Source: Longimicrobiales bacterium (GTDB lineage Bacteria; Gemmatimonadota; Gemmatimonadetes; Longimicrobiales; Gaopeijiaceae). Taken from it: a stretch of 64,000 nt of DNA. Both the position numbers and the translations under genes were made by a program. The stretch spans positions 77,496-141,495 of the forward strand of contig CBDEGT010000002.1 of NCBI GenBank assembly GCA_965237965.1. Direction: 5' to 3'. Positions 6,534-55,511 of the stretch are shown one piece after another; the stretch's first letter is position 1; every line of letters begins with the position of its first letter. The notes beneath the pieces were generated by a model. The model was not told the origin of the DNA. It did not search any database and saw nothing but the letters and a program-made list of their open reading frames with translations.

Positions 6534-6678
6534 GGCCTCGCTCCCCATTCGGAGCGTGCCTCGCCATGATAGGCACCATAGGGACATGGCGTCCACGAGG
6601 GCTCGAGTCGGCCGTGGAGAGCGCGTAACACCGGTAGTTGGTGCTCGTCAGCGGCTCGACCTGCTCTTCCCACAGCCT

Positions 6679-7953
6679 CTACAAGGCCTCGGGCGGGCCC
6701 TCCAGCACGAACCGCCACCGCTCGTAACCGGAACCGCGGAGATCCCGGACAAGCAGGAGCATCTCGGTGGCAGGCTCGAGAAGACCCACCGCCACGATTC
6801 TGCCGTCGTATCGGTTCTCGATGGAGTTCACCGGGGTGTGGGCCACGACATGTAGCTCGGCCCCGTAGACGTTCAACGTCTGCTCGAGCGCCGACACAAG
6901 TGTATCGGTCTGAACATAGCCTCGAAACCACAGGATGCTTTCGTCCTCGAACAGGAGCCTACCCCTTCGGTCGAGCGCCGCGGGTTCCACGACGATCACC
7001 TCGGAGTATTGGCTTCGCACCGAGTCTGCGGTCTCCATGTCTAGCGCAATCGCCACCGTCGAATCGGCCCAACGGTAGAACAGGTCTTCAGCGATAAAGG
7101 TGCGTATTGAGTCGTTTACCGCCTCTACCGAACTCGGTGCAACCCCCGGGAGAATCCCGCCGTGGGCGAGGAGGGCGCCGTCCACCCGCATGACCCCAGG
7201 GCGCTCGGCCAGCCACTTGCCGAGGAGGGATGAGCGCACGTCGAAGAGCTCGGGATACGAGGCCCCGTGCATGCGCGCGATCAGCTGCTCCTTGGGTGCG
7301 ACGTAGCGGACGTCGTGAGTGAAGATCAGCGCCTCATGATTCCCGAGAACGACGTGGGAACCACCTCCAGCCGAACGGGCCTCCTGCTCCAGCCGGTAGA
7401 GGAGCCAAAGCGTCTTGGTGACGTCCGCGCCACGATCGAAAAGATCCCCTAGGAAGACCACGTGCCGGCGCCCTCCAGTCCACGTCCCCTCCGCGTCGGT
7501 CAGCCGCGCGTTCATGAGCAGCCGCAGAAGCCGCTCGTACTCGCCATGCACGTCCCCCACCACGAAAAGCGAGTCGACCCCCGTCCGAATGCCCGATTCG
7601 GGCGATCGGACTTCTCCTATGAAGAGTCGGGTCGAGTGCAATCGGCTAGAGCCGGCCACCCCGTACCGAAGGAGAACGTCCCGATCAAGGCGCGGAAGCG
7701 ATACCTCGTGAGATTCTGCCCGTGGTGTCTTGGTATCAAGAATAAGACCATCGTCCGTGAGCACCTGGAGGAACCCTTCCTGCGCCCCGGAGGTGAGCCA
7801 GTGGACCCCGAGCTCGACACCGTCATCCGTCACCCACAGCCCGTACTCCCCCTCCACTCGGGTCTGAGCCTGCGCAGGTCCCGAGCTGAGCGCCAGCAGG
7901 TGTGAGCAGAGCAGTAGAAGGGCGCTCCAACGCGGGAACGTGGAGCCGCTCAT
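6679..7953 (-). CDS. secreted metallophosphoesterase (calcineurin-like / PPP-family phosphatase)
   Basis: GDVHGEY..GDLFDRGAD..GNHE motif series, and N-terminal signal peptide MSGSTFPRWSALLLLCSHLLALSSGPAQA. Confidence 0.75.
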   Translation of the reverse strand: MSGSTFPRWSALLLLCSHLLALSSGPAQAQTRVEGEYGLWVTDDGVELGVHWLTSGAQEGFLQVLTDDGLILDTKTPRAESHEVSLPRLDRDVLLRYGVAGSSRLHSTRLFIGEVRSPESGIRTGVDSLFVVGDVHGEYERLLRLLMNARLTDAEGTWTGGRRHVVFLGDLFDRGADVTKTLWLLYRLEQEARSAGGGSHVVLGNHEALIFTHDVRYVAPKEQLIARMHGASYPELFDVRSSLLGKWLAERPGVMRVDGALLAHGGILPGVAPSSVEAVNDSIRTFIAEDLFYRWADSTVAIALDMETADSVRSQYSEVIVVEPAALDRRGRLLFEDESILWFRGYVQTDTLVSALEQTLNVYGAELHVVAHTPVNSIENRYDGRIVAVGLLEPATEMLLLVRDLRGSGYERWRFVLEGPPEAL

Positions 7954-8007
7954 GGGACCCACGGGGGAGGCCAACACGACTGTGAAGATCGAGGTCCGCC
8001 CAGCCGA

Positions 8008-8970
8008 TCAAAAAGCCATGTAGCGGCCTCGATCGACGTCGTCGAGGAAATCCTCAATCCGGTCCCAGACGTCATCGATCTCACCCTCCGTAAGACCGAT
8101 CTGAATTACCCCATCCTCCTCTCGTACCCCTCGCGTGTCCCACAGGTTTTCCGTTGGCTTCACCCTTACCAACTCGTCGTCGACTACCTCCCACTGTGCC
8201 AGCACCCCCAGCGTCTCATCTAACTCCTCCTCAGTGATGTCCCGAAGCCGCTCCACCGTGGCTGCAGGGAACTGATTCACTTGAAGAAATTTCCACTTCG
8301 TGCCGCGGTTGCTCTCCTCGCTTCGAAACGCCACGCCGTTGTCCACCGCGAAGACACGCGGGTTCGATGAGAACCTGGAGATGAGCAGGTTGCCGACGTT
8401 CGAGTCGCTGTGCCAAATGAGGTGCGTGAAGAGGTTCGCGTTCGCCCAGTGCCTGGCATAAGCAGGATCAGAACCGAATCGGTCCAGATCGAACACATCC
8501 TCATCTGTCACGAAAGTGAGGAAGGACTGCAGAACCACGAGCACCGACGCAGCCCCGCGGAATGTGGGATCCATGCGATCGTCCAGCGTCTGATACCAGT
8601 CGAGGGACACGGCACGCGGAACCGTCGGAGGAACGACGAAATCCGGCTCGTCCAAGAACAGCTTCTGGAGCTCGTAGGCCGCGATCTCGTAGCGCGGTGA
8701 GTTGTTGAAGTCGTCCCCACCTCGCGGGGCCGCTGCCCACTTAGTGAGAATCACCGTCCCGTCCTCGAACGACAACTCGGGACGCTGAGTTCGGTCTCGC
8801 TCGGTTCGCGTCCCGATCAGAGCGTCAGGAAGCTCGAACGGCGCGTAGGCCAGAAGGTATTCAATCGAGTCCACCGGAAGGGTGATATTCATGTCCTGAG
8901 CGCGCACAGACGACGTCGGCGCCGAGAACATCGCCACGCTCAGAGGCACGATCACATTGCGGGTTTTCAT
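8008..8970 (-). CDS. secreted protein with protein-kinase-like (PKL/APH-like) catalytic motifs
   Basis: Signal peptide. HSDSNVGNLL matches the HxDxxxxNLL catalytic loop of ePK/APH/choline kinases, and AVDNGVAF is a DFG-equivalent. Immediately upstream of the secreted phosphatase on the same strand. Confidence 0.4.
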   Translation of the reverse strand: MKTRNVIVPLSVAMFSAPTSSVRAQDMNITLPVDSIEYLLAYAPFELPDALIGTRTERDRTQRPELSFEDGTVILTKWAAAPRGGDDFNNSPRYEIAAYELQKLFLDEPDFVVPPTVPRAVSLDWYQTLDDRMDPTFRGAASVLVVLQSFLTFVTDEDVFDLDRFGSDPAYARHWANANLFTHLIWHSDSNVGNLLISRFSSNPRVFAVDNGVAFRSEESNRGTKWKFLQVNQFPAATVERLRDITEEELDETLGVLAQWEVVDDELVRVKPTENLWDTRGVREEDGVIQIGLTEGEIDDVWDRIEDFLDDVDRGRYMAF

Positions 8971-18841: not shown

Positions 18842-21310
<2,469 letters not shown>

Positions 21311-21625
21311 ACCACCCAATACCTCTCTATACGGTATACGGAGCGGCTGGCTGACGCGGGCATCGAGCCGTCCGTGGGAAGCAAAGGAGATTCCTACGAC
21401 AACGCGTTGGCCGAATCGATCATCGGCCTGTTCAAGACGGAGATGATCCGACGGAACGGGCCCTGGCGTAACCTGGAAGACGTCGAATTCGCCACGCTCG
21501 AGTGGGTCTGGTGGTTCAATCACCACCGTCTGCTCGAACCCATTGGGTACGTTCCCCCAGTGGAGAGGGAGCAGGAGTATTACCGGAACCTGAGCGCCCC
21601 GGCCAGGCTGGTGGCACTCAACTAA
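21311..21625 (+). pseudogene. IS3 orfB C-terminal part (integrase core C-terminus) displaced by the IS30 insertion
   Basis: ..SVGSKGDSYDNALAESIIGLFKTE..WWFNHHRLLEPIGYVPPVEREQEY is the conserved IS3 orfB C-terminus. Confidence 0.7.
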
Positions 21626-23560
21626 ACAAGTCTCCGGAGAAGCCGGGGCGATTCACGTTGACGCTGTAACGCTCTCGCCCTTCCACGGTCCGGGTGACGT
21701 TCATGCCACCCACCGCGGTCATGATCGTCTTCTGGACGTCGGCCATGCTGAGCCCGTAACGGGCCGCCGCCTGCCGGTCCACATCCACCTCTACGTACTT
21801 CCCTCCGATGGCTCGCTCGGCGAAGACGGAGGCCGTACCCTCCACCATGGGGAGGAGGCCCTCGATCTCTTTGCCGATCGCTTCGAGTGTGGCGAGATCT
21901 GGGCCGAAGAGCTTGATGCCGACCGGGGTCTTCAGATCAGGAGACGGTGCCTGAGCATGAAGCCCAGGGTCGGGCGGTAGAACCTCAGCGCCGCTCGGTT
22001 GATCGGGTTCTCCTCCTCCGACCTGATCTTCCCCCGGATGAACGCCCCCATCGCCACCGGCACAAGCGTGATGGCCAGCAGCGCCGACGCGGCCATGGCC
22101 AGAGTCTTGGTCAGCGCCAGGGGCTTGAACAGGCGCCCCTCCTGCGCGACCAGGGAGAAGATGGGTAGGAAGCTCAGCGTAATGATGAGCAGCGAGAGGA
22201 ACAGCGCCGGCCCCACCTCCTTGGACGCATCCAACGAAAGCTGCCAGGAGGAGCGGGTGCCGCCGTCTCGCTCGTTGCGCTCCATGTGCTTGTGCATGTT
22301 TTCGATCATGACGATCGCGCCGTCCACCATGGCCCCGAGCGCGATGGCGATGCCGCCCAGGCTCATGATGTTTGCGTTGACGCCGAGCCAGCGCATGACG
22401 AGGAAGGACATGAGCACGCCCACCGGCAGCGTGACGATGGCGACCAGGGCACTGCGGGCGTGCATGAGGAAGACGATCGCCACCATCGCCACGATCAGGC
22501 TTTCTTCCAAAAGCTTCTCCCTGAGCGTCTCGATGGCGCGGTGGATGAGGTCGCTCCGGTCGTAGCCGACCACGATCTCCACGCCCTCAGGTAGGGAGCG
22601 CTGGATCGCGGCCATCCTCTCCTTGACCCGCTCGATCACCTGGAGGGGATTCTCGCCGAACCGCATGATCACGACCCCGCTGGTCACCTCTCCCTGGCGT
22701 ATGCGCCCGTCCTCTGCTCGCCACGCCAGGTCCGCCATACCCCGCCGGATCTCGGGGCCCACGTGAACGCGGGCCACGTCGCCCACGGTGACGGGCGTGC
22801 CGCCGGGCCCTAATCCAATGGCAACAGACTCCACGTCCTCGATCGAGCCCAGGTAGCCGAGGCCGCGGACCATGTACTCGCTCCCGCCCAGCTCCAGGAC
22901 CCGTCCGCCCACATCCAGGTTCGATTCGCGGAGCGCTCTCAGGACCCGGGAGAGCGGGATCTCGTATGCCAGCAGCCGCTCCGGCTCGAGTTCCACTTGG
23001 TACTGCTTCTCGAGCCCGCCCAAGGTCGCGACCTCGCTCACCCCCGGGACCGCGGTGAGCTGATAGCGCACGTACCAGTCCTGGAGGCTCCGGAGCTCCG
23101 CGTTGTCGAGCTTCCCGCTCCGGTCCAGCAGGACGTACTGCATGACCCAGCCGACCCCCGTCGCGTCGGGGCCGAGCTGCGGCTGCACCTCCTCAGGTAC
23201 CTTGTCGCCGATCCCGTTCAGGTACTCGAGCACGCGGGAGCGTGCCCAGTACAGGTCCACGTCGTCCTCGAACACCACGTACACGAAGGAGCGCCCGAAC
23301 TGGCTAATGCCCCGCACGTACTTCGTGCTCGGAACCTTGAGCAGCTCCGTCGAGAGCGGATAGGTGACCTGGTCTTCGACGACCTGGGGCGCCTGCCCCC
23401 TCCATTCCGTCTGCACGATGACCTGTACATCGGAAAGGTCGGGGATGGCGTCCACCGGGGTCGTGAGCATCGCCCAGCCACCGAAGCCCACGATCGCCAC
23501 GGTACCCAGAACGACGAAGAACTTGTTGTCGAAGGACCACTCGATGATGCGCCGCAGCAT
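21618..23560 (-). pseudogene. CusA/CzcA-family RND heavy-metal efflux pump. Only N-terminal half (542 aa) plus a ~75-aa internal fragment in another frame; 3' half removed by IS3 insertion
   Basis: MLRRIIEWSFDNKFFVVLGTVAIVGFGGWAM.. is the CzcA N-terminus. Second fragment ..YVEVDVDRQAAARYGLSMADVQ.. Ends at the IS3 right IR (21655). Confidence 0.75.
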
Positions 23561-23562
23561 GA

Positions 23563-24141
23563 TTAGCGCCCTCCCGTGGAGTCGGGACGGGCCATTCCGC
23601 CGGCATCCATGTCCATGCTGTCCATCCCTTGCATGCCGCCCATGTCCGTTCCCTCCATGCCGGACATCTCCATCTGCTGCATGCCCCCCATGTCCATTCC
23701 TGCCATGTCGGACATGTTCATCTGCGCCATCATCGCCTTGATCACCTCGGCGAGGTTCGACTCGGAGTCGAGGAGGAATTGCGCCGAGGTGACCACGCGC
23801 TGGCCGGGCTCCACGCCGTCGACGACCTGCACGAGTCCCTCACCGCGCACGCCGAGCACCAGTTCGTGCGGCATGATCTCGCCAGCGCCCATGTCCACAA
23901 AAGCAACCGCACGCTCACCCGAATACAGTACGGCGGAGACCGGAACGGTCAGCGCCTCGCCCAGGTCGGAGGCGAAGCGCACAGTGGCGTACATCCCCGG
24001 CTTGAGCTGTCTGCCGGGGTTGGCCAGCGCGATCCTCGCACGCATGGAGCGGGTACGGTCCGCCAGCGTCGGGTAGACGTACTCGATGGTGCCTGAGAAC
24101 GTTCGGCCGGGGAGCGCAGCCACTTCGACCTCTGCGGGCAT
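23563..24141 (-). pseudogene. RND efflux membrane-fusion protein (CusB-like) C-terminal part with Met-rich metal-binding tail; N-terminus deleted
   Basis: MFP beta-barrel/MP-domain sequence, then ..MNMSDMAGMDMGGMQQMEMSGMEGTDMGGMQGMDSMDMD (MxM repeats typical of Cu/Ag systems). Confidence 0.65.
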
Positions 24142-24163
24142 GCCTTCGCGGACAAGGCCAATG

Positions 24164-24796
24164 TCAGCCTCGAAGACCTCGGCGCTGCGCGGCAGTCCCC
24201 ACCCCGTACTTCGCAGACGTGAGCTCGGCGAAGTCCCCCACCAGCGTCTCGTTACGGCCCGTGACCGCGATGGCCTGATTCACGAAGTAGACCTGGTAGT
24301 AGGTCGACTTCACGTCGGCGAGGACCTGATCCCGCACGCGCTCCACCTCCCACTCCGAGGTCTCGGCTTGGAGCCGCGCCACCTCCTCCCTGAGTCCAAG
24401 CTTGCCCGGCCAGGGGAGCATGGCACTCAATTGCACTTGGGCCATCGTCATCATGTTCCCGCTCAGACGGGGCCGCGCCACCGGCACGTTCATGAGGCCG
24501 ATCCCGACCATCGGGTCGGGCAAGGCCCCTGCCTGGGGCACGCGGGCGGCCGCTGCCTCCGCCGCCCGCTTTGCGGCCGCGATCCGCGGGTTGACGGAAT
24601 CGGCCTCGGCCAGCAGTGCCGGGAGCGCCACGTCCTGGGCGGAGAGCGACTCGGTGCAGGCCATCAGCCATGCGCCTAGACGCGTTGAGATCCTGATCGT
24701 TCTCATTCCCTTCGTGCGAATCATGCTCTCGAGTCCTCTCATAGTCCGTTTCCGATTCCCGCCCCAACCACACACGAGGGCGTCCGGATGGGACAC
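24164..24796 (-). pseudogene. TolC-like outer-membrane efflux factor (CusC/CzcC) N-terminal ~200 aa, fused by deletion to the MFP fragment
   Basis: Signal peptide plus the ..EVERVRDQVLADVKSTYYQVYFVNQAIAV.. OMF repeat pattern. Only about 45% of expected length. Confidence 0.6.
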
Positions 24797-24896
24797 CCGA
24801 GGTAGTCTGGGGCTGCTCCGACGCCGCTCATGCGGTGCCGGTGGCGTTGCTGGGTTTGGAAGGGCGGGGACCGGAAGGAACTCCGGCCCTCGTGGA

Positions 24897-25283
24897 CTAC
24901 GCCCGAGGGGGGTGGAAGAGGGTGTGCGTCAGCAGGAGGTAGGGCGGGACCTCATCGAGGAGGATCCAGGCCGTCGGCAGGGGCGAGATCATGATCTCCA
25001 CTGAGACCACGGCAGGCAGGGAGACGCTGGGGACCCAGCACTGGCCCATCACCGAACAGAAGGGACAGTTGCCACCCTCGTGATCGGCATCATCCCCGTG
25101 GTGTTGCACGGCCATGAACATGCGGGTGGCAACAGCTCCGTCGGACTCGACCTCGCCTAAGGCCGCCGCGCTCCTCGCCGGCATGGGTGCGCACGTCGAC
25201 GCCACGACCGCTTCCGTGAAGGAGAGGGCCATCGCTGCGGAGGCGAGAGTGCCGGCCAGAATGCGCGTACGTCGCTTGATCAT
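24897..25283 (-). CDS. small exported His/Cys-rich protein, possible metal-binding accessory protein of the efflux operon
   Basis: Signal peptide MIKRRTRILAGTLASAAMALS, then ..MAVQHHGDDADHEGGNCPFCSVMGQCW. Confidence 0.35.
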   Translation of the reverse strand: MIKRRTRILAGTLASAAMALSFTEAVVASTCAPMPARSAAALGEVESDGAVATRMFMAVQHHGDDADHEGGNCPFCSVMGQCWVPSVSLPAVVSVEIMISPLPTAWILLDEVPPYLLLTHTLFHPPRA

Positions 25284-25554
25284 GGATCCGGAAGAAGGAT
25301 ACGACTTACGGTACACTCGAGGGTCCGAAAGGGATTCGGGCCCCCGGGCTGCTCGCTAGGGGAAGCTCTGAGCAAGGCCCTTCTGGGGGCGGTGCGAGAC
25401 GGAGGGAGCCGGTTTCAGCGGTCTTGGGGGCGATGACGGGCTGAAAACGCGCCCAACCGGCATGTTCTGGCCGATGATCCCCTCGTTGCGCCCCGCGTGG
25501 GCGGATGTTTCCCGCGCCGGCCGCTCACGCCGTCGAATAGCGGCCCGCCACAAG

Positions 25555-33989: not shown

Positions 33990-35925
33990 ATGTCGAGCTT
34001 CTTGGCGCATGAGATCCGCGTACTCGTCGCCGCCCTCGGCATCGTCCTCTGCACGTCCGACGCTGTCGCTGCGCAGACCAACGGACGGGACGGCAGCGCG
34101 CCCTCCGCGCCCGCCGTCCGGATCGGTGACGAGCCGGTCATCGACGGCTCCCTCTCGGACCCGGCCTGGGAGGGGCTTCCCGTACTGACCGACTTCGTCC
34201 AGCGCATCCCGCGGGACGGGGAACCGGCCACACTGAGAACTGAGGTGCGGATCGGGCACGACGAAGCGGCGCTCTACGTGGGCGTGCGCGCGCACGACGA
34301 CCAGCCGTCTCTGATCGTCCCGGGCGAGGCGATCCGAGATTACGACCTCGCCCAGTCCGACACGGTCATGCTGATCTTCGACACGTACAAGGATGGAGTG
34401 AACGGCTTCGCGTTCGGCACGAACCCGGCCGGAATCGAGTACGATGGCCAGGTGGTGGACCAGGGCTCAGGAACCGGCGGGCTCCGCGGCTCGCTCGGAA
34501 CCGGGGGCGGTGGTGGCGCTGGGCGCCAGCAGGGCGGCTCGGGCGGTGGCTTCAACCTGAATTGGGACGGCAACTGGGAGGTGGCGACCGGCCGCGACGC
34601 GCAGGGCTGGAGCGCCGAATTCCGGATCCCCTTTTCGACGCTGCGCTACCGCGCCGGTGGACGGCAGGACTGGGGCCTCAACGTGCTGCGACGAGTACGC
34701 CGGGTGAATGAGGAATCGTCTTGGTCGGCGATCCCGCGCGAGTTCGACTTCAACCGCGTGAGCGAGGCGGGCACCCTGACCGGCCTCGAGCCGCCGGCAG
34801 TCCGGTCGGTCCAGCTCACGCCGTACGTACTCGGCTCCTCCGCGCGGAACTATGCGCTCGACGACCCCGGGTTCGACGAGAACGGCGAGGTGGGCGGCGA
34901 CGCCAAGGTGCAGATCACGCAGGGCCTCACCCTCGACCTCACTTACAACACCGATTTCGCGCAGGTTGAGGTGGACGACGTCCAGACCAACCTGACACGC
35001 TTCAGCATCCAGTTCCCGGAGAAGCGCCCGTTCTTCCTCGAGAACTCCGGGATGTTCTCCTTGGGGGGCCGCGGGGCAGACCTCTTCTTCAGCCGCCGCA
35101 TCGGGATCGCGCGCAACCTGAACCGGGTGCCCATACAGGGGGGTGGCCGGCTCTCGGGCAAGACGGCCGGGCTCAACGTCGGCCTGCTCCACATCCGCAC
35201 CCAGGAGCTGGACAGCGTCCAGAGCGGGCAAGCCTACTCTGTGGTTCGGCTCGCGCGCGAGCTGGGCAATCGTACCAGCATCGGAGGCGCGTTCCTGCAG
35301 CGGGACGGGCTGGAGGAGACTGACGACTACAACCGCACCTACGCTGTGGACGGGCAGCTGGGGATCGGCACCGCGTGGAACCTCAACGCCCTCGTGGCCC
35401 GCACCGAGACGCCTGGAATGGAAGGCCGGGACTACATGTTCAATGCAGGCGGCAGCTACAGCAGCCGCAACCTGAATCTCAACGGCAGCTTCAGCGAAGT
35501 CGGTGAGGACTTCAATCCCGAGGTTGGCTTCCTTCAGCGCTCCGGCTATCGATCGTTTGGCGGACGCGCGGTGATCTTCATCCGTCCGACGGATCTGTTC
35601 GGGCTACGTGAGCTCAGGCCGCACGTCAGGTTCAGCACCACGCGCGATCTCGAGACCGGTTTCGAGGAAACCTCGCAGGTCCACCTCGACCACCACTTCG
35701 AGTGGGACTCGGGGATGTTCTTCAGCCCCGCCTTCAACTGGAATCGCGAGGGGCTCGAGGAAGCTTTCTCAATCTCCGACAGCGTGATCGTGGCGCCAGG
35801 CACCTACGACGGCTGGGAGATGAGTTGGCATTTCTACACGAACCCATCGGCACCAGTCTCATTCGAGGCCCGCTTCACCAACGGCGCCTTCCTCTCGGGA
35901 AACCGGCGCGGATACTCTCGTCCAG
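33990..35925 (+). pseudogene. DUF5916/CBM9-like exported protein (carbohydrate-binding family 9 N-domain + beta-barrel), C-terminus truncated by IS110-like remnant
   Basis: Signal peptide. ..DGSLSDPAWEGLPVLTDFVQRIPRDGEPAT..NWDGNWEVATGRDAQGWSAEFRIPFSTLRY.. ORF runs out of family into the IS110-like sequence at ~35925. Confidence 0.55.
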
Positions 35926-36180
35926 GCCGCCTGGCACTACAGGATGCGACCCGCCGTGGGCAAGCAGCTCGAGAAGCGACAGCGCGGCCAACCGCCCGCC
36001 GTCATCGCCCATGCCTGGAAGTCCCAGCACCGGCTCCACAAGCTCTACCACCGCATCGCGGTCCGGAAATCGGCCCAGGTCGCTGTCGTCGCCGTCGCCC
36101 GCGAACTCGTCGGCTTCATGTGGGCCGTCATGCGTGAGCTCGAAATCGAACAGGCGACCGCGCTCGACGCGGCCGCGTAA
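35922..36180 (+). mobile_element. IS110-family 3'-terminal remnant (encodes ..AHAWKSQHRLHKLYHRIAVRKSAQVAVVAVARELVGFMWAVMRELEIEQATALDAAA*)
   Basis: C-terminal IS110 transposase signature. About 90% nucleotide identity to 11030..11200. Confidence 0.55.
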
Positions 36181-36265
36181 CCCAGACCAAGAGGACCCGA
36201 GGCACGATAGGAGGACGCTCGACCTAACTATTGGGGATTATATACCCTAGTGCCCAAGCCTTTCC

Positions 36266-36409
36266 TTACTTAGAGGGCTTGGGCGGGCTGTAGTCGATGA
36301 CGGACCGCAGGAGTTTGTCCGGTGTGGTCGGAATACTCACGTCAGCTTCTAGCTCGACTTTCGTCGGCTGGTAGGTTGAGGGCTTTTCGGGTTTCTTGGA
36401 CTTCTTCAT
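36266..36409 (-). CDS. small Lys/Pro-rich hypothetical protein (passenger)
   Basis: MKKSKKPEKPSTYQPTKVELEADVSIPTTPDKLLRSVIDYSPPKPSK. No homology recognised. Confidence 0.3.
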   Translation of the reverse strand: MKKSKKPEKPSTYQPTKVELEADVSIPTTPDKLLRSVIDYSPPKPSK

Positions 36410-36455
36410 GAGCGTCTCTCTCCAGCTTAGAACGGCAGTGATGATTCGGCGACCC

Positions 36456-37201
36456 CTACCGCGACCAAACGTTGTTGTCGTACTGTCGTCTCGAGTCATC
36501 GTTCACCCATTGCACGTAGGGACTCGAGTTCCAGTAACCGGTGTCGAGTACCCGAGCTATTGGCATCACCATTATTGACTTAGCACCCATATTTGCTAGT
36601 GCTCCAGCGGCACTGATGGCGGTCCCACCCGTGACCCATGTGTCCTCAACCAGGAGGACTCGCTCCCCGTCCGCACTCTCGCCGTCGCTGACGAAGCACT
36701 GGGGGCAGTAGGAGCCGCGGGTAGCAACCATGTCATCGTGGGGTTGGTACTCCAGCAACGGGACGAGCTTTTCCCGTAACGGTACCATCATCGCGAGTGC
36801 CTGCCGAAGCGGTTGGTCCATGAAGCTCCTTCCGCGCTTTGATGGTACGGGCGTCACTACTGTCACTTCCCCGCCTAGAAGTGCTTCGATATCTTCCCTG
36901 TTGGAGGCCAAGAACATCCACAGGACAGACACGAGTTGAGCTCGGTACTCCGGATGTCCGGCCTTGTAGTTCGCCATCTTGTTGTACCAAGCGCCAGGCC
37001 GCAGCGCGATGCTCACCGGAACAACTGATTGTAGCGTGTCCGCGGTGCCCCAGTACCACACAATCGTGTACAGGCTGGACAGTAGTTGTATCTATCGCCC
37101 TTCGGTCCCAAGCAACCTGGGCAAACCCAAGATTCAGCAACTGGCGCTACTTGTCTAAGATCTTGGACCACCGCTTGGAAGAATTCACAGACACTAGCCA
37201 C
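36456..37201 (-). pseudogene. ComF/ShosT-like phosphoribosyltransferase-domain protein (N-terminal CxxC..CxxC zinc ribbon + type I PRTase), frameshifted between the two parts
   Basis: Frame 1 (37013..37201): ..WVCPGCLGPKGDRYNYCPACTRLCG. Frame 2 (36456..37061): ..VTVVTPVPSKRGRSF..ERVLLVEDTWVTGGTAISAAGAL (PRPP-binding loop). Confidence 0.6.
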
Positions 37202-37209
37202 CCAAGCTG

Positions 37210-38161
37210 CTACGCGGTCAGGCTCAGTTCTGGTTCATTCTGAGCCTCGAGTCTCTCAAGGATTTCATTTGTTGACCCGACCTCAATCGCCACCGCCCCG
37301 TATGCTCCGTCCTCGACGTACTCCCTCGCCCACTCATACGACTCCACAAGGGATTTGAGTAGAAAGACCGCCCGTCCATGCTGCATCGCGACTCGGGCCT
37401 GCATTCGGGCTCCAGAGGTTTTACTCGCCTCGACCACGACGGTTGTGAGTGAAAGCCCAGACATCACGACATTACGCATGGGGAACGTCCAACGACGCGG
37501 GGTTTGGTGGGGAAAAAACTGACTCAATAGCGCCCCACCAGCATCCACGATTCGCGTGGCGAGTTTCCTGTTTACGGACGGATAGCAATGATCCAGGCCG
37601 GTTCCCATGACGGCGACCGTCCGACCGCCGGCCTCAAGTGTACTAGTGTGAACAGCCGTGTCGATACCGGCGGCCAACCCCGAGTTGATCGTAAACCCCG
37701 CTTCGGCTAGTTCAGACGCGAGAAGAGTTGCCCTCTTCAGCCCCGCGTCGGTCGCGTTCCTCGTGCCGACGATCGCAATAGACCTCGAGTCCATCTGCTC
37801 CCTCCAACTACCCTGCAGAAAGACTATTGGGGGGCGATCGAAGATTGAGTGAAGGTTATGGGTAGCATGGGTCTAGCACTGACCGAACGTCGATTCCTCG
37901 CTCGAGCCAGTCGTCGACGGCTATACGAGCTTCGTCGAGCTCATCAGAGGAAACGGTTCCTGCCAACCCACAATTAACCTCCGGGGTGCTGAACAGCACG
38001 TCATCCAGCGTCAGTTGGATGAGTTCCACAGCTGAGCCCACAAGGTCTATCAGCGTCGCGAGCTGGTCAACCCTGACTGGCTTTATTGCGGCTCTAATTA
38101 GAGCCGCAATAGCAGTTAGCTCGTCGCGGCGGTCGCCAGGGCTCAGATCCTTGAGGTCCAA
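37210..38161 (-). pseudogene. DprA/Smf-family (DNA-processing protein A-like, Rossmann/SLOG) protein, split by a frameshift in the linker
   Basis: N-part ..AVDDWLERGIDVRSVLDPCYP*. C-part frame reads ..NLHSIFDRPPIVFLQGSWREQMDSRSIAIVGTRNATDAGL..NSGLAAGIDTAVH.. The two frames overlap at 37856..37875. Confidence 0.65.
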
Positions 38162-38215
38162 GGCCGTTTTTCCGTTGAGGGGGTTGAGCGGGTGGCGTAA
38201 AACTCGTCTGGTACA

Positions 38216-39187
38216 TCACGCAACCAAGTCCTGATAGCGGAGCCGCTTACCGTCCAGGCCCCGGACCATTGCGGTCATCTGGTCTAGTGTGTCCTGATTA
38301 CGCTGGTTGTGGCGACCAGCGAACTCACCCACATAGCGGTCCAAGTGGGCGGCGGACATCTGGTGGTAGGTGCCGTGGTAGCCACGCTTGAGCATCGACC
38401 AGAAGGATTCGATACCGTTGGTGTGGGCCATCCCGTTCACATACTGACCGACACCATGTTGGACAGTTTCGTGAAAAGTCAAGCCCGTATAGGCCCTGTA
38501 TTCGTCGGTGTAGACGGTCGCTTCTGGCCTAGAGTGTTTCCGGACAAAGCCTTGCAGGGTTGTTGCGTCGGTGGATTCGACCACCTGAGCAACGACGGTA
38601 TTGGTCTCCCGGTCCTTGGCTCCCACGACCGCCGTCTTGCCCACGGGGCCACGGCCAGCCCGTAGCTTCTTGCTTGAGTGCTTGTTCCGCTCCTTGCCTC
38701 CTACGTAGGTCTCGTCCACTTCCACCGGCCCGACGAACGCGCCGGTGGACTCCCACGCTTCACGGAGACGGTGCGCTAGGTACCACGCGGTCTTCTGCGT
38801 GACCTTCAGGTCGCGGTGGAGCTTCATGCTCGACACGCCCTTCAGGTTCGTGGCCAACAGGTAGATGGCGATCACCCACTTCTGGAACCCTATGTTTGAG
38901 CCCTGTAGCGCGGTTCCCGTGCGGGCGCTGAACCGCCTCCGGCAATCGCGGCACCGGTAGGGCATGGTCTTGTGTTTCGCGCCTACCTGGACGTTCAGGG
39001 AGCCGCAAGGTGAGGGGCAAGCGATCCCATCCGGCCAACGCGCTTTGACGAACCATACTTCGGCTGACTCATCGTCAGGAAACAGATCGAGCAAATCGAT
39101 AAGCGCGAGGCCTTCGCGGTAGTGCTTTCCAGGTGCTCTCCGTGCCATTGAATCCTCTCTCGTTGGGCTGATTAATAATAGTGCCAA
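38216..39187 (-). CDS. IS1595 family transposase (N-terminal zinc ribbon + DDE_Tnp_IS1595)
   Basis: ..WPDGIACPSPCGSLNVQ..YRCRDCRRRFSARTGT..VEVDETYVGG..YTDEYRAYTGL..HTNGIESFWSMLKRG.. Confidence 0.85.
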   Translation of the reverse strand: MALLLISPTREDSMARRAPGKHYREGLALIDLLDLFPDDESAEVWFVKARWPDGIACPSPCGSLNVQVGAKHKTMPYRCRDCRRRFSARTGTALQGSNIGFQKWVIAIYLLATNLKGVSSMKLHRDLKVTQKTAWYLAHRLREAWESTGAFVGPVEVDETYVGGKERNKHSSKKLRAGRGPVGKTAVVGAKDRETNTVVAQVVESTDATTLQGFVRKHSRPEATVYTDEYRAYTGLTFHETVQHGVGQYVNGMAHTNGIESFWSMLKRGYHGTYHQMSAAHLDRYVGEFAGRHNQRNQDTLDQMTAMVRGLDGKRLRYQDLVA

Positions 39188-39409
39188 TCGGAGATAAAGT
39201 CAAGGGCCAATTGAGGTTAAATGGCGTCGCGGTCAAGGATTTACTGGCGGATTTACTGGCGGCGCTTGGGCACTAGGGTATATAATCCCCTAACTATTGG
39301 GTACGGCCCTCACGGGCCTCAATCCCAATCCATTAGTATTGAGCCAGCTCCAGACGAATCTGACTTCGTGCCGCGCTGGGTAGATACCTACCTAATCGGC
39401 GAATATTAG

Positions 39410-40221
39410 GGCCTGTTAACACTAAAGGCCCATTTGTATTATATTGGGGCTATGAAAATCACAGAGTCCCAATATCGTCGGATAGAGGCTTGCTTTCCAC
39501 GTCAGCGCGGCAATGTGAGCTTCTCCAATCTCGAAGTGCTTAACGCGATCCTGTATGTGGCCGAGCACGGCTGCAAGTGGCGCGGGTTGCCTGCGCGCTT
39601 CGGTAACTGGCATACGATCTACACCCGAATGAATCGCTGGGCCAGGGCAGGTGTGCTGGATCGTGTCTTTGCGGCCCTGCAGGACGAGCAGATCATCCGG
39701 ATCAAGATCGAAGCGCTGTCGCTCGACAGTACGATCGTCAAAGTGCACCCTGATGGCACCGGCGCGCTAAAAAAAACGGCCCGCAGGCCATCGGGAAGTC
39801 GCGTGGAGGCTGGACCACCAAGATTCATATGGTTGCCGCAGATGCTCGAACCGCGATAACCTTCTCGCTATCGCCAGGCCACAACCACGACGCACCCGAA
39901 GGACGCGAACTGCTACGCATGTTGAAGCCGGTACACTCCACTGTGTCGATGATCATGGACCGGGCCTACGAGGGGGCCGAAACACGGCAATTGGTGTTGG
40001 AGCTGGGGTTTACGCCGGTCGTGCCACCCAAACAGGGCCGTGTTAGCCCGTGGCAGTACGATCGAATCATGTATCGCCGTCGCAACGAAATAGAGCGGTT
40101 ATTTCGGCGACTCAAAGGCTTCAGAAGAATCTTCTCCCGCTTTGACAAGCTCGACGCGATGTTCACGGCCTTCATCCACTTTGCGCTCATCGTCGAGGCT
40201 CTCAGATAGTGTTAACAGGCC
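39410..40221 (+). mobile_element. IS427-group (IS5 family) element. IRs GGCCTGTTAACACTA / TAGTGTTAACAGGCC; inserted at a TAG/CTAG site 118 bp from the transposon TSD
   Basis: 15-bp perfect IRs at 39410..39424 and 40207..40221. Flanks ..atTAG|IS|CTAGtagg. Confidence 0.8.
39452..40209 (+). CDS. IS5/IS427 family transposase, orfA-orfB with programmed -1 frameshift at an A8 slippery tract
   Basis: MKITESQYRRIEACFPRQRG..LPARFGNWHTIYTRMNRWARAG.. A8 run at 39769..39776. orfB ..MDRAYEGAETRQLVLELGFTPVVPPK..ERLFRRLKGFRRIFSRFDKL.. Confidence 0.8.
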
Positions 40222-45711: not shown

Positions 45712-46896
45712 TCAGCGGATCGGTTCGGCCTCCGGGTCTCGACGCTTGCCAGCGAGATACGCGGCCCAAGCCTGCATGACCTCGCGCCTCCGGTCCAGCA
45801 GGTCCGAACGGGCGTAGGCGGCCTCGGCCTGACTGCGGACCTTGTGTGCGAGCGCCGCCTCCGCCACCTCGCGCGCCACGCCCGTCTCCGAGCACCAGTC
45901 GCGGAACGAGGACCTCATCCCGTGGGGCGTTCCTGCGATGCCGAGACGCCGGAGCAACTTGCTGAACATCGAGGCGTGGATCCTTCCTCCCTTCGCGCCC
46001 CGGAACACGATCCCGCCGCCGCCGTGGAGCTTCCGGGCTTCCTCGAGGATCTCCAAGGCCCGCCCCGACAGGGGAACCCGGTGCTCGCGCTTCGCCTTCA
46101 TGCGGTCGGCGGGAATGGTCCAGACATCGAGCTCGACCTCGTCGCACGCCGCGCCCCGGACCTCGTTCGAGCGTGTCGCGGTCAGGACCATGAACTCGAA
46201 CGCCAGCCGGACACCGGCATGGGACTCCGAGTCGCGGACCTTGGCCAGAGCCGCCGCCACCTCGCCGTGCGGGAGCGCCTTGTGATGCCGGATGGCGTTG
46301 CCGTTACGCGGCAGCGCGGCGGCGATGGCGTCCCCCGCCGGGTTGTCCGGCCGGTAGCCCTTCGCGACGGCCCACTTCATCACCGCGCCGATCCGCTGGT
46401 GCACGGCCCTCGCGGTCGCGGGCTTGCTCGACCAGATGGGCTTGAGGATGGCGAGCACGTCGGCCGTCGCGACCTCGCTCACGCGCTTCCGGCCGATGCG
46501 CGGATGGGCGTAGTCCCGCAGCGTCTGCCGCCACTGCCCGGCCATGCGGGATGGGTTCTTCCAGGTCGGCGAGTGGATCGCCATCACCTTCTCGACGGCC
46601 GCCTCGAAGGTGGGAACCCCCGCGTCTCTCGGGTCGTGGCCCCAATGGACCGCCCGCCTGTACTCCAGCGCCTTCTCCCTCGCCTCCCTGAGCGTCACGA
46701 CCGGGTACGAGCCCAGTCCGAGATTGGTGGGCTTCCCCGCCACTCGAATGCGCTGGCCCCAAGACTTGGAGACGCGCCCGGACTTCATCCGGTGGACGCG
46801 GAGGTACAGGCCGAGCCCGCCGAGCCCGCCGTCGCCGTAGCGTCCCGGCGTCTTCACCCGCGCCACGAAGGCGGCCGTAAGGGGTCGTTTACGCAT
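45712..46896 (-). CDS. tyrosine-type site-specific integrase (P4-like, N-terminal DUF4102 arm-binding domain)
   Basis: ..RYGDGGLGGLGLYLRV.. (DUF4102) and C-terminal ..HGMRSSFRDWCSETG..LAHKVRSQAEAAYARSDL.. (R..H..R..Y catalytic region). Confidence 0.85.
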   Translation of the reverse strand: MRKRPLTAAFVARVKTPGRYGDGGLGGLGLYLRVHRMKSGRVSKSWGQRIRVAGKPTNLGLGSYPVVTLREAREKALEYRRAVHWGHDPRDAGVPTFEAAVEKVMAIHSPTWKNPSRMAGQWRQTLRDYAHPRIGRKRVSEVATADVLAILKPIWSSKPATARAVHQRIGAVMKWAVAKGYRPDNPAGDAIAAALPRNGNAIRHHKALPHGEVAAALAKVRDSESHAGVRLAFEFMVLTATRSNEVRGAACDEVELDVWTIPADRMKAKREHRVPLSGRALEILEEARKLHGGGGIVFRGAKGGRIHASMFSKLLRRLGIAGTPHGMRSSFRDWCSETGVAREVAEAALAHKVRSQAEAAYARSDLLDRRREVMQAWAAYLAGKRRDPEAEPIR

Positions 46897-47917: not shown

Positions 47918-49072
47918 ATGGCACGGCGACCGGCAACCCTTACTGCCGCCTTCGTACGGACGGTGAGCAAGCCCGGCGTTTACGGCGACGGACGCGGCTC
48001 GCGCGGCCTGAGCTTGCGCGTTCACCGGATGAAGAGCGGCCGGCTATCGCGCACATGGAGGCAACGGTTGCGCGTCGCGGGGCGGCTGACGACGACCGGG
48101 CTCGGCCGGTATCCCGAAGTCTCGTTGGCGGAAGCCCGGCACAAGGCCATTGAGAACGCGCGGGCCATCGGCCAGGGTGTGGACCCGCGCGGCGGCGGCG
48201 TCCCGACGTTTCGCGAAGCCGCCGAAGAGACGATCCGGCTACACGCCGAATCGTGGAAAGCCGGCTCGCCGCTCCCCGGGGAATGGCACTCGACGTTCAG
48301 GCTGTACGCCACGCCGATCCGGGACAAGCCGGTGGACCGGATCACGTCGGGCGACGTGCTGGCGTGTCTCCGGCCGGTATGGAACGTGAAGCCAGCCGCC
48401 GCGCGGAAAGCCCGGAACCGGCTCCGCGTGGCATTTCGCTGGTGCGTCGGACAAGGCTACATCTCGACGAATCCCGTGGACCGCGCAGTGGCCGCGCTCC
48501 CGAAGGTCAACGGCAACGGCACGACGCACCATCGCGCGCTCCCGCACGGTGAGGTTCCAGACGCGCTCCGGCGCATTCGGTCGGCCGACGCCCCGGAATC
48601 CGCGCGGCTCGCCGTCGAGCTGATCGTCTTGACGGCGGCGCGCTCCGGCGAAGCGCGCGCCGCGACGTGGGACGAAATCGACACGGCGGTGAAGGTTTGG
48701 ACGATCCCGCCGGCGAGAATGAAAGCCGGCCGGGAGCATCGCGTGCCGCTGTCCAGCGGCGCGCTCGACGTGCTGCTGCGCGCCAGCGAGCTTGCCGGCG
48801 ATTCGCCGTTCGTCTTCCCGACGCGGGCCGGCCGCGCGCTGTCCTCGAAATCCACTTACTGGGTGCTCCAGCTGGCCGGTGTCACCGGGACGACGCTGCA
48901 CGGTTTCCGAACGTCGATTCGTGTCTGGATGGCCGAAACCGGCGTGGACCGCGAGACGGCGGAAGCCGTGTTGGCTCACGTCGTGCGCGGCACCGAGGGC
49001 GCGTACATGAGATCGGACCTGCTGGCGCGCCGGTGCGAAGTCATGCAGGCATGGAGCGCCTATGTCGCATAG
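47918..49072 (+). CDS. tyrosine-type site-specific integrase, paralogue of int1 (~50% aa identity), divergently oriented
   Basis: ..VYGDGRGSRGLSLRV.. DUF4102, and ..LHGFRTSIRVWMAETG..LAHVVRGTEGAYMRSDL.. Confidence 0.85.
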   Translation: MARRPATLTAAFVRTVSKPGVYGDGRGSRGLSLRVHRMKSGRLSRTWRQRLRVAGRLTTTGLGRYPEVSLAEARHKAIENARAIGQGVDPRGGGVPTFREAAEETIRLHAESWKAGSPLPGEWHSTFRLYATPIRDKPVDRITSGDVLACLRPVWNVKPAAARKARNRLRVAFRWCVGQGYISTNPVDRAVAALPKVNGNGTTHHRALPHGEVPDALRRIRSADAPESARLAVELIVLTAARSGEARAATWDEIDTAVKVWTIPPARMKAGREHRVPLSSGALDVLLRASELAGDSPFVFPTRAGRALSSKSTYWVLQLAGVTGTTLHGFRTSIRVWMAETGVDRETAEAVLAHVVRGTEGAYMRSDLLARRCEVMQAWSAYVA

Positions 49073-53434: not shown

Positions 53435-53649
53435 CCATTGTGCCCTCCCCTTTCGTGTCTTGACCCCGTCCAGATTCTAAAACTGGACGGGGTTGTTAGC
53501 GGCGGCCCAAAATTGCACAGATGTGGCGGCCGAAAATTGCGCACTTGGCGACTTCGTGGCTGCGAAGCGCCGGGCATGACACGACAGGGCCGAGCGACCT
53601 CGTAGCCGATCGTTCACGTTGGCGTCTCCTCGAGAGCGGTGGGGGCGCG

Positions 53650-54690
53650 ATGATCGGATGGGAGAAGCGAGTGTTGCTGAGGCATTATCTCGAGCAAGGC
53701 CTAACGAAGGCCGCGGTAGCTGAGCAGCTAGGCGTGAGTCGGCGCACGGTTCACTACTGGATCGAGACGGGGCAGCTGGACCGGGACATAAGCGAGGAGA
53801 CGACGCGGTACGGGCCTCGACCACCGGTGCCGACGAAGCTGGACGCGTACAAGGGCATTGTACTGAGCCGGTTGGCCGAGTACCCGGAGCTCACGGCGGT
53901 CCGGCTCTTCGAAGAGATCAAGGCAGCCGGCTACTCAGGCGGCTACACGCAGGTGAAGGAGTACGTGCGGCGGGTCAGGCTCCGGCCACCCGAGGAGCCC
54001 TTGGTACGCTTCGAGACTGCGCCGGGCCATCAGGGCCAGGTAGACTTCGCGGACTTCCGGCTACCGTGGGGCAAGCGCTACGCGCTTCTCGTGGTCCTGG
54101 GCTACTCGCGCCAGCTGTGGCTGCGGTACTTCACTCGCAAGACGATGGCTCATGTCTTTGAGGGCCTGGAGGCCGCATTCGCCTCGTTCGGTGGCGTACC
54201 GTCCGAGCTACTGTTCGATCAGATGAAGGCGGTCATCATTGATGATGAGCGCGACGCAGGTGGCCGGGTCACTGAGAACGCCGAGTTCCTGCGCTTCGCG
54301 TATCACTGGGACTTCCGGGTCCGAGCGTGTCGGCCGTATCGGGCGAAGACCAAGGGCAAGGTCGAGCGACCGGTGAGTTACGTGCGCTCGAGCTTCTTCT
54401 ACGGCCGCACGTTCACATCCGACTCTGATCTCAACGCTCAGGCCCAGCACTGGCTCGATACGGTGGCTAATGTGCGCAACCACGGCACACTCAAGGAGCG
54501 ACCGGTCGACCGCCTCGAGCGGGAGCTGAGCGACCTGAAGCCGCTCGCTCTACGTCCATACCGCTCCTACGTGCTGCCGCCCATGGTGAAGAAGCAGCCA
54601 GCGCAGACTCAGGTGAACAAGGTGCCACGCATCGACGTTCAGCGTCGACCGCTCGAGACGTATGCTCAGGTCGTGGGAGGCGCCCGGTGA
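53650..54690 (+). CDS. istA: IS21 family transposase IstA
   Basis: HTH ..LTKAAVAEQLGVSRRTVHYWIE.. and DDE core ..HQGQVDFADFRLPWGKRYALLVVLGYSRQLWL.. Confidence 0.85.
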   Translation: MIGWEKRVLLRHYLEQGLTKAAVAEQLGVSRRTVHYWIETGQLDRDISEETTRYGPRPPVPTKLDAYKGIVLSRLAEYPELTAVRLFEEIKAAGYSGGYTQVKEYVRRVRLRPPEEPLVRFETAPGHQGQVDFADFRLPWGKRYALLVVLGYSRQLWLRYFTRKTMAHVFEGLEAAFASFGGVPSELLFDQMKAVIIDDERDAGGRVTENAEFLRFAYHWDFRVRACRPYRAKTKGKVERPVSYVRSSFFYGRTFTSDSDLNAQAQHWLDTVANVRNHGTLKERPVDRLERELSDLKPLALRPYRSYVLPPMVKKQPAQTQVNKVPRIDVQRRPLETYAQVVGGAR

Positions 54691-55511
54691 AGGCCGCTGT
54701 GCGCTCGCGTCGTGACCGGATCCGGGGCCAGCTCGCTGACCTCAAGATGCCCGGTGCGCTCGAGTCGCTCCACGACGTGCTCGCGGGTGTCGACGGCGGA
54801 GGCGTCACGGCATCGGAAGCCATCGAACAACTGCTCGGGGCTCAGATCACGCTGCGCAACAACCGAAGACTCCAGGCCGCGATGCGTTCGTCTCGGCTCC
54901 CTGCCATCAAGCTGCTCGCCGACTTCGACTTCAGCTTCCAGCCCTCCATCAAGCGCGAGCAGATCGACTCCCTGCACGAGCTCGGCTTCTTGGAGCACAA
55001 GGAGAACGTGATCTTCCTCGGCCCACCCGGTGTCGGTAAGACCCATCTCGCGATCAGCCTCGCCATCGAGGCCGCCCAGAGCGGGCGCAGGGTCTACTAC
55101 GGCACGCTCGCCGACCTCATCACCTCGCTCGAGGAGGCCAAGGCCGCCGGCAAGTTCGGGCACCGCCTCAAGACGCTGACCTACCCCGCGCTCCTCGTCG
55201 TCGACGAGATCGGCTACCTGCCTGTCTCTCAGACCGGCGCCATGCTCTTCTTCCAGCTCATCAACCGCCGCTACGAGCGAGCATCGACCGTGCTGACTTC
55301 GAACAAGGGCTTCGAGGAGTGGGGCCAAGTCTTCGGCGACGAGGTCATGGCTGCCGCGCTGATCGACCGGCTCCTGCACCACTGTCACATCGTTAACATC
55401 CGGGGCAACAGCTACCGGATGCGCCATCACACCGAGCTCTCCAGGTCCCTCCACTCCGCTCCTTCGGAGCCGAACTCTTCACTCCATCGGCCTAGGAGAT
55501 CAAGAACATAA
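54687..55511 (+). CDS. istB: IS21 family helper ATPase IstB
   Basis: Walker A GPPGVGKTHLA and Walker B LLVVDEIGYLP. Stop overlaps the istA end. Confidence 0.9.
   Translation: MKAAVRSRRDRIRGQLADLKMPGALESLHDVLAGVDGGGVTASEAIEQLLGAQITLRNNRRLQAAMRSSRLPAIKLLADFDFSFQPSIKREQIDSLHELGFLEHKENVIFLGPPGVGKTHLAISLAIEAAQSGRRVYYGTLADLITSLEEAKAAGKFGHRLKTLTYPALLVVDEIGYLPVSQTGAMLFFQLINRRYERASTVLTSNKGFEEWGQVFGDEVMAAALIDRLLHHCHIVNIRGNSYRMRHHTELSRSLHSAPSEPNSSLHRPRRSRT

Follow-up and report, generated by a model that had tools for sequence, protein, structure and literature searches.

The DNA analysed here is a 64-kb stretch (referred to as "the window" throughout) of contig CBDEGT010000002.1 from a Longimicrobiales bacterium. 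It contains a segment of 3,058 bp, measured between the outer ends of two inverted repeats, in which an IS1595-family transposase gene is accompanied by a gene for a DprA-family protein, a gene for a zinc-ribbon phosphoribosyltransferase (PRTase) and a small lysine-rich open reading frame (ORF). All of these genes read on the minus strand. The features of the element are listed below with their positions in the window and their strand, a dot denoting features without orientation; L008 and L009 are related elements described further below.

36225-36232 (.): target-site duplication, left copy, TAACTATT; abuts the element end
36233-36259 (+): terminal inverted repeat, transposase-distal, GGGGATTATATACCCTAGTGCCCAAGC; 27/27 complementary to 39264-39290
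36266-36403 (-): small Lys-rich ORF (MKKSKKPEK...QPTKVELEADVSIPTTPDKLLRSVIDYSPPKPSK); backbone gene of the insertion sequence (IS), not cargo
36386-38215 (-): cargo slot, without DNA homology to sister elements (blastn versus L009 and L008)
36456-37201 (-): gene for a zinc ribbon (CPGC...CPAC) plus PRTase, ComF-like; 1-nt deletion at about 37040-37045
37210-38161 (-): DprA-family gene (SAM-like N-terminus plus Rossmann fold); PF02481 at 2.6e-60; 2-nt deletion at 37858
38084-38111 (.): perfect 28-bp palindrome with the halves TATTGCGGCTCTAA and TTAGAGCCGCAATA, inside the DprA-like gene (codons 17-26)
38216-39187 (-): IS1595-family DDE transposase gene, intact; probable start ATG at 39150, 310 amino acids (aa)
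39175-39203 (-): promoter-like site TTGACT-17-TATTAT upstream of the transposase; consensus match only, 10/12
39264-39290 (-): terminal inverted repeat, transposase-proximal; exact reverse complement of 36233-36259
39291-39298 (.): target-site duplication, right copy, TAACTATT; abuts the element end

Boundaries, family and sister elements

An earlier note on this DNA, made from the sequence alone, had described perfect 27-bp terminal inverted repeats, an 8-bp target-site duplication and the lack of an inner repeat, and all of this was reproduced. The repeats are complementary at 27 of 27 positions, and the 27-mer occurs at exactly two sites in the window when up to 3 mismatches are allowed (0 expected, as determined from 100 shuffles). 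The octamer TAACTATT was found at both positions given above, and a scan of the element for a third, inner copy of the repeat detected none at up to 8 of 27 mismatches. The chance that an identical 8-bp duplication brackets 3,058 bp is approximately 1.5e-5. Just inside the transposase-proximal end, at 39237-39260, a 12-mer (GGATTTACTGGC) is present twice as a perfect tandem duplication.

The transposase matches the Pfam profiles DDE_Tnp_IS1595 (PF12762; 1.9e-40) and Zn_ribbon_IS1595 (PF12760; 9.7e-06), and it scores 187 bits against the NCBIfam model transpos_IS1595 (NF033547), for which the cut-off is 75. The closest transposases, P0026, P0027, P0029 and P0046, are 86%, 80%, 73% and 68% identical, respectively, and the first three equal the window protein in length. 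Its catalytic residues follow the pattern D...D...E-x7-K (IESFWSMLK). With a DDE transposase that carries an N-terminal zinc ribbon, with inverted repeats and with an 8-bp duplication, the element is a member of the IS1595 family. The GGGGATTAT ends and the D..D..E-x7-K pattern are consistent with the signature of the ISNwi1 group in ISfinder (ggnnatTAT ends, DDEK). In ISfinder the passenger-carrying IS1595 groups are designated 'ISNwi1+' and 'ISPna2+', and the ISNwi1 group includes passenger-carrying members. When plasmids were searched with the transposase by tblastn, only distant IS1595 members were retrieved (≤48% identity), which were set aside. The transposase gene, the two ends and the duplication are all undamaged; the IS as such still appears competent for transposition.

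To identify sister elements, the contigs of the closest transposases were scanned for end-like sequences, and the small terminal ORF was then employed as a second probe. This yielded eight elements whose ends begin with GGGRATTAYATA and each of which is flanked by a perfect 8-bp duplication. The content located 3' of the transposase is given for each of them.

L008: 3709 bp, duplication TTTTCTTT; 826-aa type IIG-like enzyme with restriction endonuclease, methyltransferase and target recognition domains (HSDR_N_2 plus N6_Mtase/Eco57I), then the small ORF
L009: 2436 bp, duplication AAAAATAG; ParA-like ATPase (split), then the small ORF; ends 27/27 identical to those of the window element
L013: 2502 bp, duplication AAAGTAAT; Trypsin_2 protease with weak PADLOC LmuA / RT-protease matches, plus small ORFs
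L014: 2925 bp, duplication AAAAAAAA; small proteins without assigned family
L015: 2925 bp, duplication AAAGGGAG; the L014 element in another flank
L019: 3098 bp, duplication GACGGTAA; Phage_P4_cII-like protein plus a 318-aa protein
L023: 1769 bp, duplication AATTCTTA; small ORF plus an 86-aa ORF
L025: 6390 bp, at 2542-8931, duplication GAAGAAAG; L013-type cargo (Trypsin_2) with nested IS3 copies

The element of L014 and L015 recurs in L016-L018 and thereby occupies at least four different flanks in all. The nine duplications of the window and the eight sisters are composed of 78% A+T, in hosts of high GC content. In blastn comparisons of the window element with L009 and L008, alignment was restricted to positions 1 to ~1075 of the oriented element, i.e. 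the repeat plus the transposase as far as its stop, and to the last ~150 bp. As homology is limited to this transposase arm and the last ~150 bp, the cargo slot extends from 36386 to 38215. Judged from these sequences, the lineage has a fixed backbone, of which one arm comprises an end, the promoter and the transposase gene, and the opposite arm a small conserved basic gene and the second end; the slot between the two arms is variable. In L025, the perfect 8-bp duplication is kept although several IS3-type transposase gene pairs, apparently nested insertions, interrupt the cargo region.

The small ORF had been listed among the cargo by the earlier note. The ORF is indeed present, but it is a backbone gene of the IS lineage. 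Homologues reside at the same end in L008 (9438-9575), L009 (8083-8262), L013 (7664-7954) and L019/L020 (7001-7150 in L019), and farther from the end in L023 (7001-7156) and L025. The encoded proteins share the conserved core QPTKAELEADVSIPTTPDELLRAVIDYSPP, and some copies possess an RGRP (AT-hook-like) motif. Differences between the genes fall mostly at third codon positions (e.g. 2/2/14 for the window versus L009), which argues for a real backbone gene. No family was matched in Pfam, NCBIfam or PADLOC, and a word-index search retrieved only 16 relatives. The small protein may act as an accessory factor or regulator of transposition that binds the A+T-rich ends.

Further occurrences of the ends were addressed by exact scans for a 22-nt end sequence, which had no match in JGI metagenome contigs and a single match in GTDB genomes, designated L007. 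In this metagenome-assembled genome of the Dehalococcoidia (OZ220670.1, 2452-6191), the gene for an 860-aa type IIG-like enzyme is divergent from the transposase gene and placed on its opposite flank. The small ORF has the reverse orientation, 6 mismatches have accumulated in the degenerate far end, and a target duplication is absent. A reading of L007 as a simple IS with inverted small ORF was rejected, as the locus is rearranged, and L007 was not used as evidence. At L021 (7001-7189) and L022 (5516-5704), a solitary right end consisting of the small ORF and a perfect terminal repeat was observed; up to 7 kb upstream there is no IS1595 transposase or left end, and MarR and aconitase genes are found there instead. 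These solitary ends would represent either remnants or parts of a very large element.

The existence of such solo right ends without a transposase within 7 kb lends some plausibility to an accidental structure at the window locus, namely a simple IS1595 copy of ~1.2 kb that happens to adjoin dprA/comF-like genes of the chromosome, the second end being an unrelated solo end at a distance of 1.9 kb. However, one and the same 8-bp duplication brackets the full 3,058 bp at the low chance probability given above, an inner end-like sequence is absent at up to 8 mismatches, and the layout is shared by the eight sisters, each with its own duplication. Moreover, the DprA–PRTase pair shows no synteny with its surroundings here, and both flanks are other ISs. 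An accidental arrangement is thus extremely improbable and effectively refuted.

Taken together, the cargo is bracketed by the duplication without an inner end, and a sister element is found in at least four flanks, as applies to transporter ISs. The data strongly support that the 3,058 bp form a single transposable unit, an IS1595-family transporter IS with passenger genes. This agrees with the single 3-kb unit proposed in the earlier note, which is confirmed by the eight related elements with like ends, duplications and different cargo. Mobility of the exact composite in the window is suggested by its own 8-bp duplication and by analogy with the sister elements. IS1595-family ISs with passenger genes have been known as transporter ISs since 2009 (Siguier, Gagnevin and Chandler, Res Microbiol 160:232, as reported in PMC3129680); going by this report, the view that such genes are unusual as IS cargo was overstated.

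Cargo genes of the window copy

The genes named by the earlier note (transposase, DprA family, PRTase, small ORF) were all recovered, but both cargo genes proved to be frame-broken, at which the term 'corrected proteins' had merely hinted. These breaks were found by comparison with intact homologues. Intact PRTase homologues of ~250 aa read ...CPACGRLRGAGVPEALLRSTVP..., whereas the window sequence needs a frame change after ...CGTGAP, and the 1-nt deletion is located in ccgcgg(g)ac, just 3' of the zinc ribbon. For the DprA-like protein, the partners in L001, L004 and L005 (loci carrying the same gene pair) read DxxYP-V/P-NLHSIFDRPP, whereas the window has YP, one leftover base and NLHSIFDRPP; the L001 and L004 partners possess one extra residue (V) after YP, where the window reads a stop. 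These two partners are also the closest ones, with 68% identity to the window protein. The repaired PRTase retains 36 of 37 family-invariant residues, among them the four zinc cysteines, VPSKRG and the PRPP (phosphoribosyl pyrophosphate) loop VLLVEDTWVTGGT. Hardly any invariant residue is lost from the proteins after repair, so any decay of the cargo is very recent.

Whether these indels are genuine was judged from the remainder of the window. Detection of frameshifts by GC3 over the window was too noisy due to the high GC content and was replaced by Pfam coverage of single genes. About ten other genes checked in this way are full length, i.e. their Pfam profiles are covered end to end or the genes have normal length, including a DctM fusion, a histidine kinase, two integrases, IstA, IstB, an NMT1_3 protein and the IS1595 transposase. 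It is therefore unlikely that two indels within 1.7 kb reflect random assembly errors. On the other side, the frameshifts could still be such errors, as related long-read contigs (2-9x coverage) also show broken ORFs, and the ParA-like cargo gene of L009 is likewise split. In balance, it appears most likely from the sequence that both cargo genes were recently inactivated in the window copy, which would then probably represent dead cargo. If the PRTase were a toxin, its loss prior to that of the antidote would be the viable order of inactivation, and a broken antidote would be consistent with this order.

The perfect 28-bp palindrome inside the DprA-like gene is the sole perfect palindrome with arms of at least 9 nt in the window. 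It is missing from the homologous genes of L001, L004, L026 and L005, which read AKAR/AKTR where the window reads AAIK, so that three otherwise conserved residues in the N-terminus of the DprA-like protein are rewritten. The palindrome looks like a template-switch mutation that perfected a quasi-palindrome, but it might instead be a protein-binding site.

These lesions raise the alternative that the element is a decayed relic, whose cargo consists of genuine pseudogenes without function here and which is of interest only as the trace of a past capture. The single frame-breaking indel present in either cargo gene, the residues altered by the palindrome and the IS graveyard all around (an IS110 fragment, IS5, IS3/IS30, IS21 and truncated efflux genes) would fit. 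However, no damage is seen in the transposase, the ends or the duplication, the proteins are hardly degenerate once repaired, and the indels may be assembly errors after all. In addition, this account is compatible with the captured-module explanation developed below rather than opposed to it. As an explanation of its own we consider it improbable.

Concerning these surroundings, a DUF5916 gene on one side of the element (33990-36180) apparently runs into the ORF 35944-36180, which to the eye resembles the C-terminal fragment of an IS110-type transposase and has no Pfam match. On the other side, an IS5-family transposase is encoded in two ORFs (DUF4096 plus DDE_Tnp_1) at 39434-40209. At 19015-25355, an IS3-type ORF (HTH_21 plus rve) overlaps with an IS30-type transposase ORF (HTH_38 plus rve), which suggests nested IS copies; a degraded efflux operon adjoins, with an AcrB-like ORF (profile positions 2-529 of 1021), an HlyD fragment and an OEP fragment. 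Two P4-type tyrosine integrase genes (Arm-DNA-bind_3 plus Phage_int_M plus Phage_integrase) at 45712-46896 (-) and 47918-49072 (+) are divergent and 1 kb apart, and an IS21 pair (IstA/IstB) is present at 53500-55511. tRNA genes were detected nowhere in the window. As a whole, the window looks like an island rich in mobile elements.

The DprA–PRTase pair and its possible roles

A word-index search retrieved 25 relatives of the PRTase (≤57% identity, about 250 aa), from which the family appeared to be very rare. This was rejected by an exhaustive profile search, which detected 103 clusters (50% identity) at E ≤ 1e-30, 869 at 1e-10 and 3530 at 1e-3. A scan of viral contigs for the PRTase gave no confirmed relative. 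Wherever enough DNA is present, a DprA-family gene of ~300-320 aa resides immediately upstream of the PRTase gene on the same strand. This applies to L001-L006 and L026, to all 21 close metagenome loci whose upstream DNA extends far enough, to most of the distant ones and even to plasmids of Streptomyces, Mycobacterium and Rhodococcus, in which PRTase identity is only 25-28%. Adjacent and co-oriented PRTase and DprA-like genes, the arrangement looked for in ShosTA, are thus conserved as a pair.

Some copies of the pair reside in defence-rich neighbourhoods: L001-3 contain Thoeris ThsA/ThsB, HEPN_Apea and an MZB helicase, L004 contains GmrSD_C, L027 a Schlafen-type helicase, and NaeI is encoded near L010. 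Competence genes were not seen near the copies in L001-L006 and on the actinobacterial plasmids. At L043 (2935-8312), the pair is located directly beside AddA/AddB-like helicase-nuclease genes (UvrD plus PD-(D/E)XK), a recombination-repair context that fits either an antidote acting through repair or a role in DNA processing.

The window PRTase matches PF00156 weakly (22 bits, under the gathering score), while its partner matches PF02481 strongly. The PADLOC ShosT models were unmatched by the window PRTase and its close relatives at an E-value limit of 10, a setting at which most matches beyond about 0.1 are already discarded by the filters of HMMER; the short ShosT model PDLC03962 is matched by distant relatives alone, and weakly (1e-4 to 1e-8). 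NCBIfam comF models gave no match at E ≤ 0.01. With 250 aa, a 4-Cys zinc ribbon and the PRPP loop, the protein has 7p0h as top structural match and ComF as closest relative in structure, and some homologues carry the JGI name 'predicted amidophosphoribosyltransferase'.

The DprA-like protein scores 220 bits against the PADLOC ShosA model PDLC03961. Taking this match as membership in ShosTA was rejected, as on the Rossmann segments the model gives 211 bits for the window protein and 209 bits for the competence protein DprA of Streptococcus pneumoniae. Likewise, PDLC02997, representing E. coli-type ShosA, gives 88 bits for the window, 86.5 for pneumococcal DprA and 448 for E. coli ShosA. Consequently, PDLC03961 alone cannot tell ShosA from housekeeping DprA, which calls for caution in annotation. 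Among structures in the PDB, S. pneumoniae DprA scores highest (3uqz, 117 bits), followed by 3maj (111 bits) and ShosA (about 90 bits). The cut-offs of TIGR00732 dprA (189 bits, cut-off 191.15) and PRK10736 (171 bits, cut-off 495) were both missed.

In the literature, toxicity of ShosT and RqlH resides in their PRTase part, and DprA-like partners neutralise it (PMC11961720, PMC12961424, PMC4670107). In the window element, the intact transposase acts on the two 27-bp ends and duplicates 8 bp of mostly A+T-rich target, and the slot holds a conserved two-gene operon encoding a DprA-family protein of the type that binds single-stranded DNA and loads RecA, followed by the ComF-like zinc-ribbon PRTase. 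By analogy with ShosTA and PsyrTA/RqlHI, the latter might be a toxin that depends on PRPP and harms nucleotide or DNA metabolism, and the DprA-like protein might serve as an indirect antidote through binding of single-stranded DNA and RecA-dependent recombinational repair. Such a pair could constitute a module of addiction or abortive infection, which would help to retain the IS and perhaps shield the host from phage. The antidote-first gene order, the tight spacing or overlap of the genes and their carriage on plasmids and an IS fit a toxin-antidote module. Toxicity of the PRTase, protection by the DprA-like protein and phage defence by pairs of the window type are all inferred from the characterised systems.

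A different role is conceivable for the same two genes. They could be a mobilised, non-toxic pair of competence type (ComFC-like plus DprA) that handles incoming or damaged single-stranded DNA and loads RecA; when carried by a mobile element, such a pair could help incoming DNA to become established or to recombine. A physical interaction between ComFC and DprA exists in C. jejuni and S. pneumoniae (PMC9005727), the window protein is nearer to pneumococcal DprA than to ShosA and only just misses the TIGR00732 cut-off, and the amidophosphoribosyltransferase names as well as the AddAB-like neighbours in L043 point in the same direction. Sequence and structure slightly favour a ComFC-DprA-like role, and only context and precedent oppose it. 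The comF models are unmatched. The two genes always travel as a closely spaced operon with no further competence genes, on plasmids, an IS and in some defence islands, and every characterised operon of a PRTase and a DprA-like protein (ShosTA, RqlHI) behaves as a toxin-antidote system (PMC11961720, PMC4670107). We regard the DNA-processing role, the main rival, as unlikely.

Some observations also weigh against a mobile toxin-antidote module as the explanation of the element. An IS1595 transposase is present in 0 of 71 metagenome loci of the pair and in none of the ~80 loci of PRTase relatives overall. Many copies reside in ordinary chromosomal settings, next to genes for peptidases, beta-lactamase-fold proteins and OmpA, and the association of the pair with defence islands is hence partial. 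On the contig of the closest PRTase homologue (P0001, in L026), the partial ORF upstream is not a transposase and no end was found. For the earlier note, a lack of further copies of the structure would have spoken against its proposal; the backbone does recur with other cargo, whereas this cargo was found on no other IS1595 element among the ~80 loci. Given the lack of IS1595 transposases at these loci, the window records capture of a free-standing module by an IS. An IS1595 transporter IS with a captured DprA-PRTase module of toxin-antidote type, most likely recently inactivated in this copy, is the best overall explanation, which we hold to be fairly probable. A more far-reaching proposal can only be put forward tentatively and seems to us somewhat doubtful: the IS1595 lineage would be a dedicated miniature shuttle for conflict genes, with a fixed backbone of transposase and small AT-hook-like protein adjoining the far end and with a slot in which defence or addiction modules are exchanged (a type IIG restriction-modification enzyme, a protease effector, ParA, a DprA-PRTase pair), and the DprA/zinc-ribbon-PRTase pair an undescribed ShosTA-type defence or toxin-antitoxin family, derived from ComFC-DprA and invisible to current defence-finder models.

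Relation to known systems

IS1595 transporter ISs and toxin-antidote systems composed of PRTase and DprA-like proteins were already known. New are the DprA-PRTase cargo on an IS1595-type IS, in a lineage whose slot holds several conflict-type modules, and a family of ComF-like PRTase/DprA pairs that is unrecognised by current defence models. No paper linking IS1595 to defence cargo was found in the literature searched. The element implies that modules of defence or addiction type can travel even on the smallest autonomous transposons, beyond Tn7-like elements, integrons, prophages and satellites, and its compact backbone of about 1.2 kb plus slot provides a concrete setting for studying cargo exchange. 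The ~250-aa ComF-like PRTases are strictly paired with DprA-family genes and are missed by current defence annotation; the family connects ComFC-DprA, the pair known from competence, to the toxin-antidote systems ShosTA and PsyrTA. The significance is lowered by the broken cargo and by the fact that the underlying concepts are known.

The element resembles the known IS1595 transporter ISs in its single zinc-ribbon DDE transposase, short repeats, 8-bp duplication and passengers inside the repeats. It differs in its cargo, as a ShosTA-like pair and, in the sisters, type IIG restriction-modification, protease and ParA genes, together with a small gene that bounds the slot, are undescribed in the literature searched.

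ShosTA (PMC11961720, PMC12961424) likewise consists of an adjacent PRPP-binding PRTase and a DprA-like protein with SAM-like N-terminus and Rossmann fold, and, like the present pair, it is encountered on mobile DNA and in some cases within defence islands. However, characterised ShosT has 424 aa and is composed of an N-terminal pyrophosphatase-like hydrolase domain and a C-terminal PRTase (PMC11961720), whereas the window PRTase lacks the former and carries an N-terminal 4-Cys zinc ribbon in its place. Furthermore, the window DprA-like protein is no nearer to ShosA than housekeeping DprA is. Of the assignment to ShosTA or ComFC-DprA made in the earlier note, the domain architecture stands, but a ShosT model match and the pyrophosphatase-like domain are missing and the ShosA match is non-specific. 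The ShosTA label applies to the domain pairing only; family membership fails on the ShosT profile, the architecture and the specificity for ShosA.

PsyrTA/RqlHI, a RecQ-like helicase-PRTase fusion with a DprA-like partner (PMC4670107), also combines a PRTase moiety, which is toxic in RqlHI, with a protein of DprA homology in one operon. The window proteins match the C-terminal part of PADLOC PsyrT weakly (E 0.003-0.016) and PsyrA with about 106 bits. In contrast to this system, the window pair has no helicase domain, and the partner is devoid of the extra domains of RqlI.

Finally, in ComFC/DprA (PMC9005727) the competence genes do not form an adjacent two-gene operon on plasmids or ISs, and the comF model is unmatched by the window protein. 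Nevertheless, ComFC is composed of a 4-Cys zinc finger and a PRT domain (PMC9005727), which is the architecture of the window PRTase and its best structural match, and DprA is the best sequence match of its partner in the PDB.

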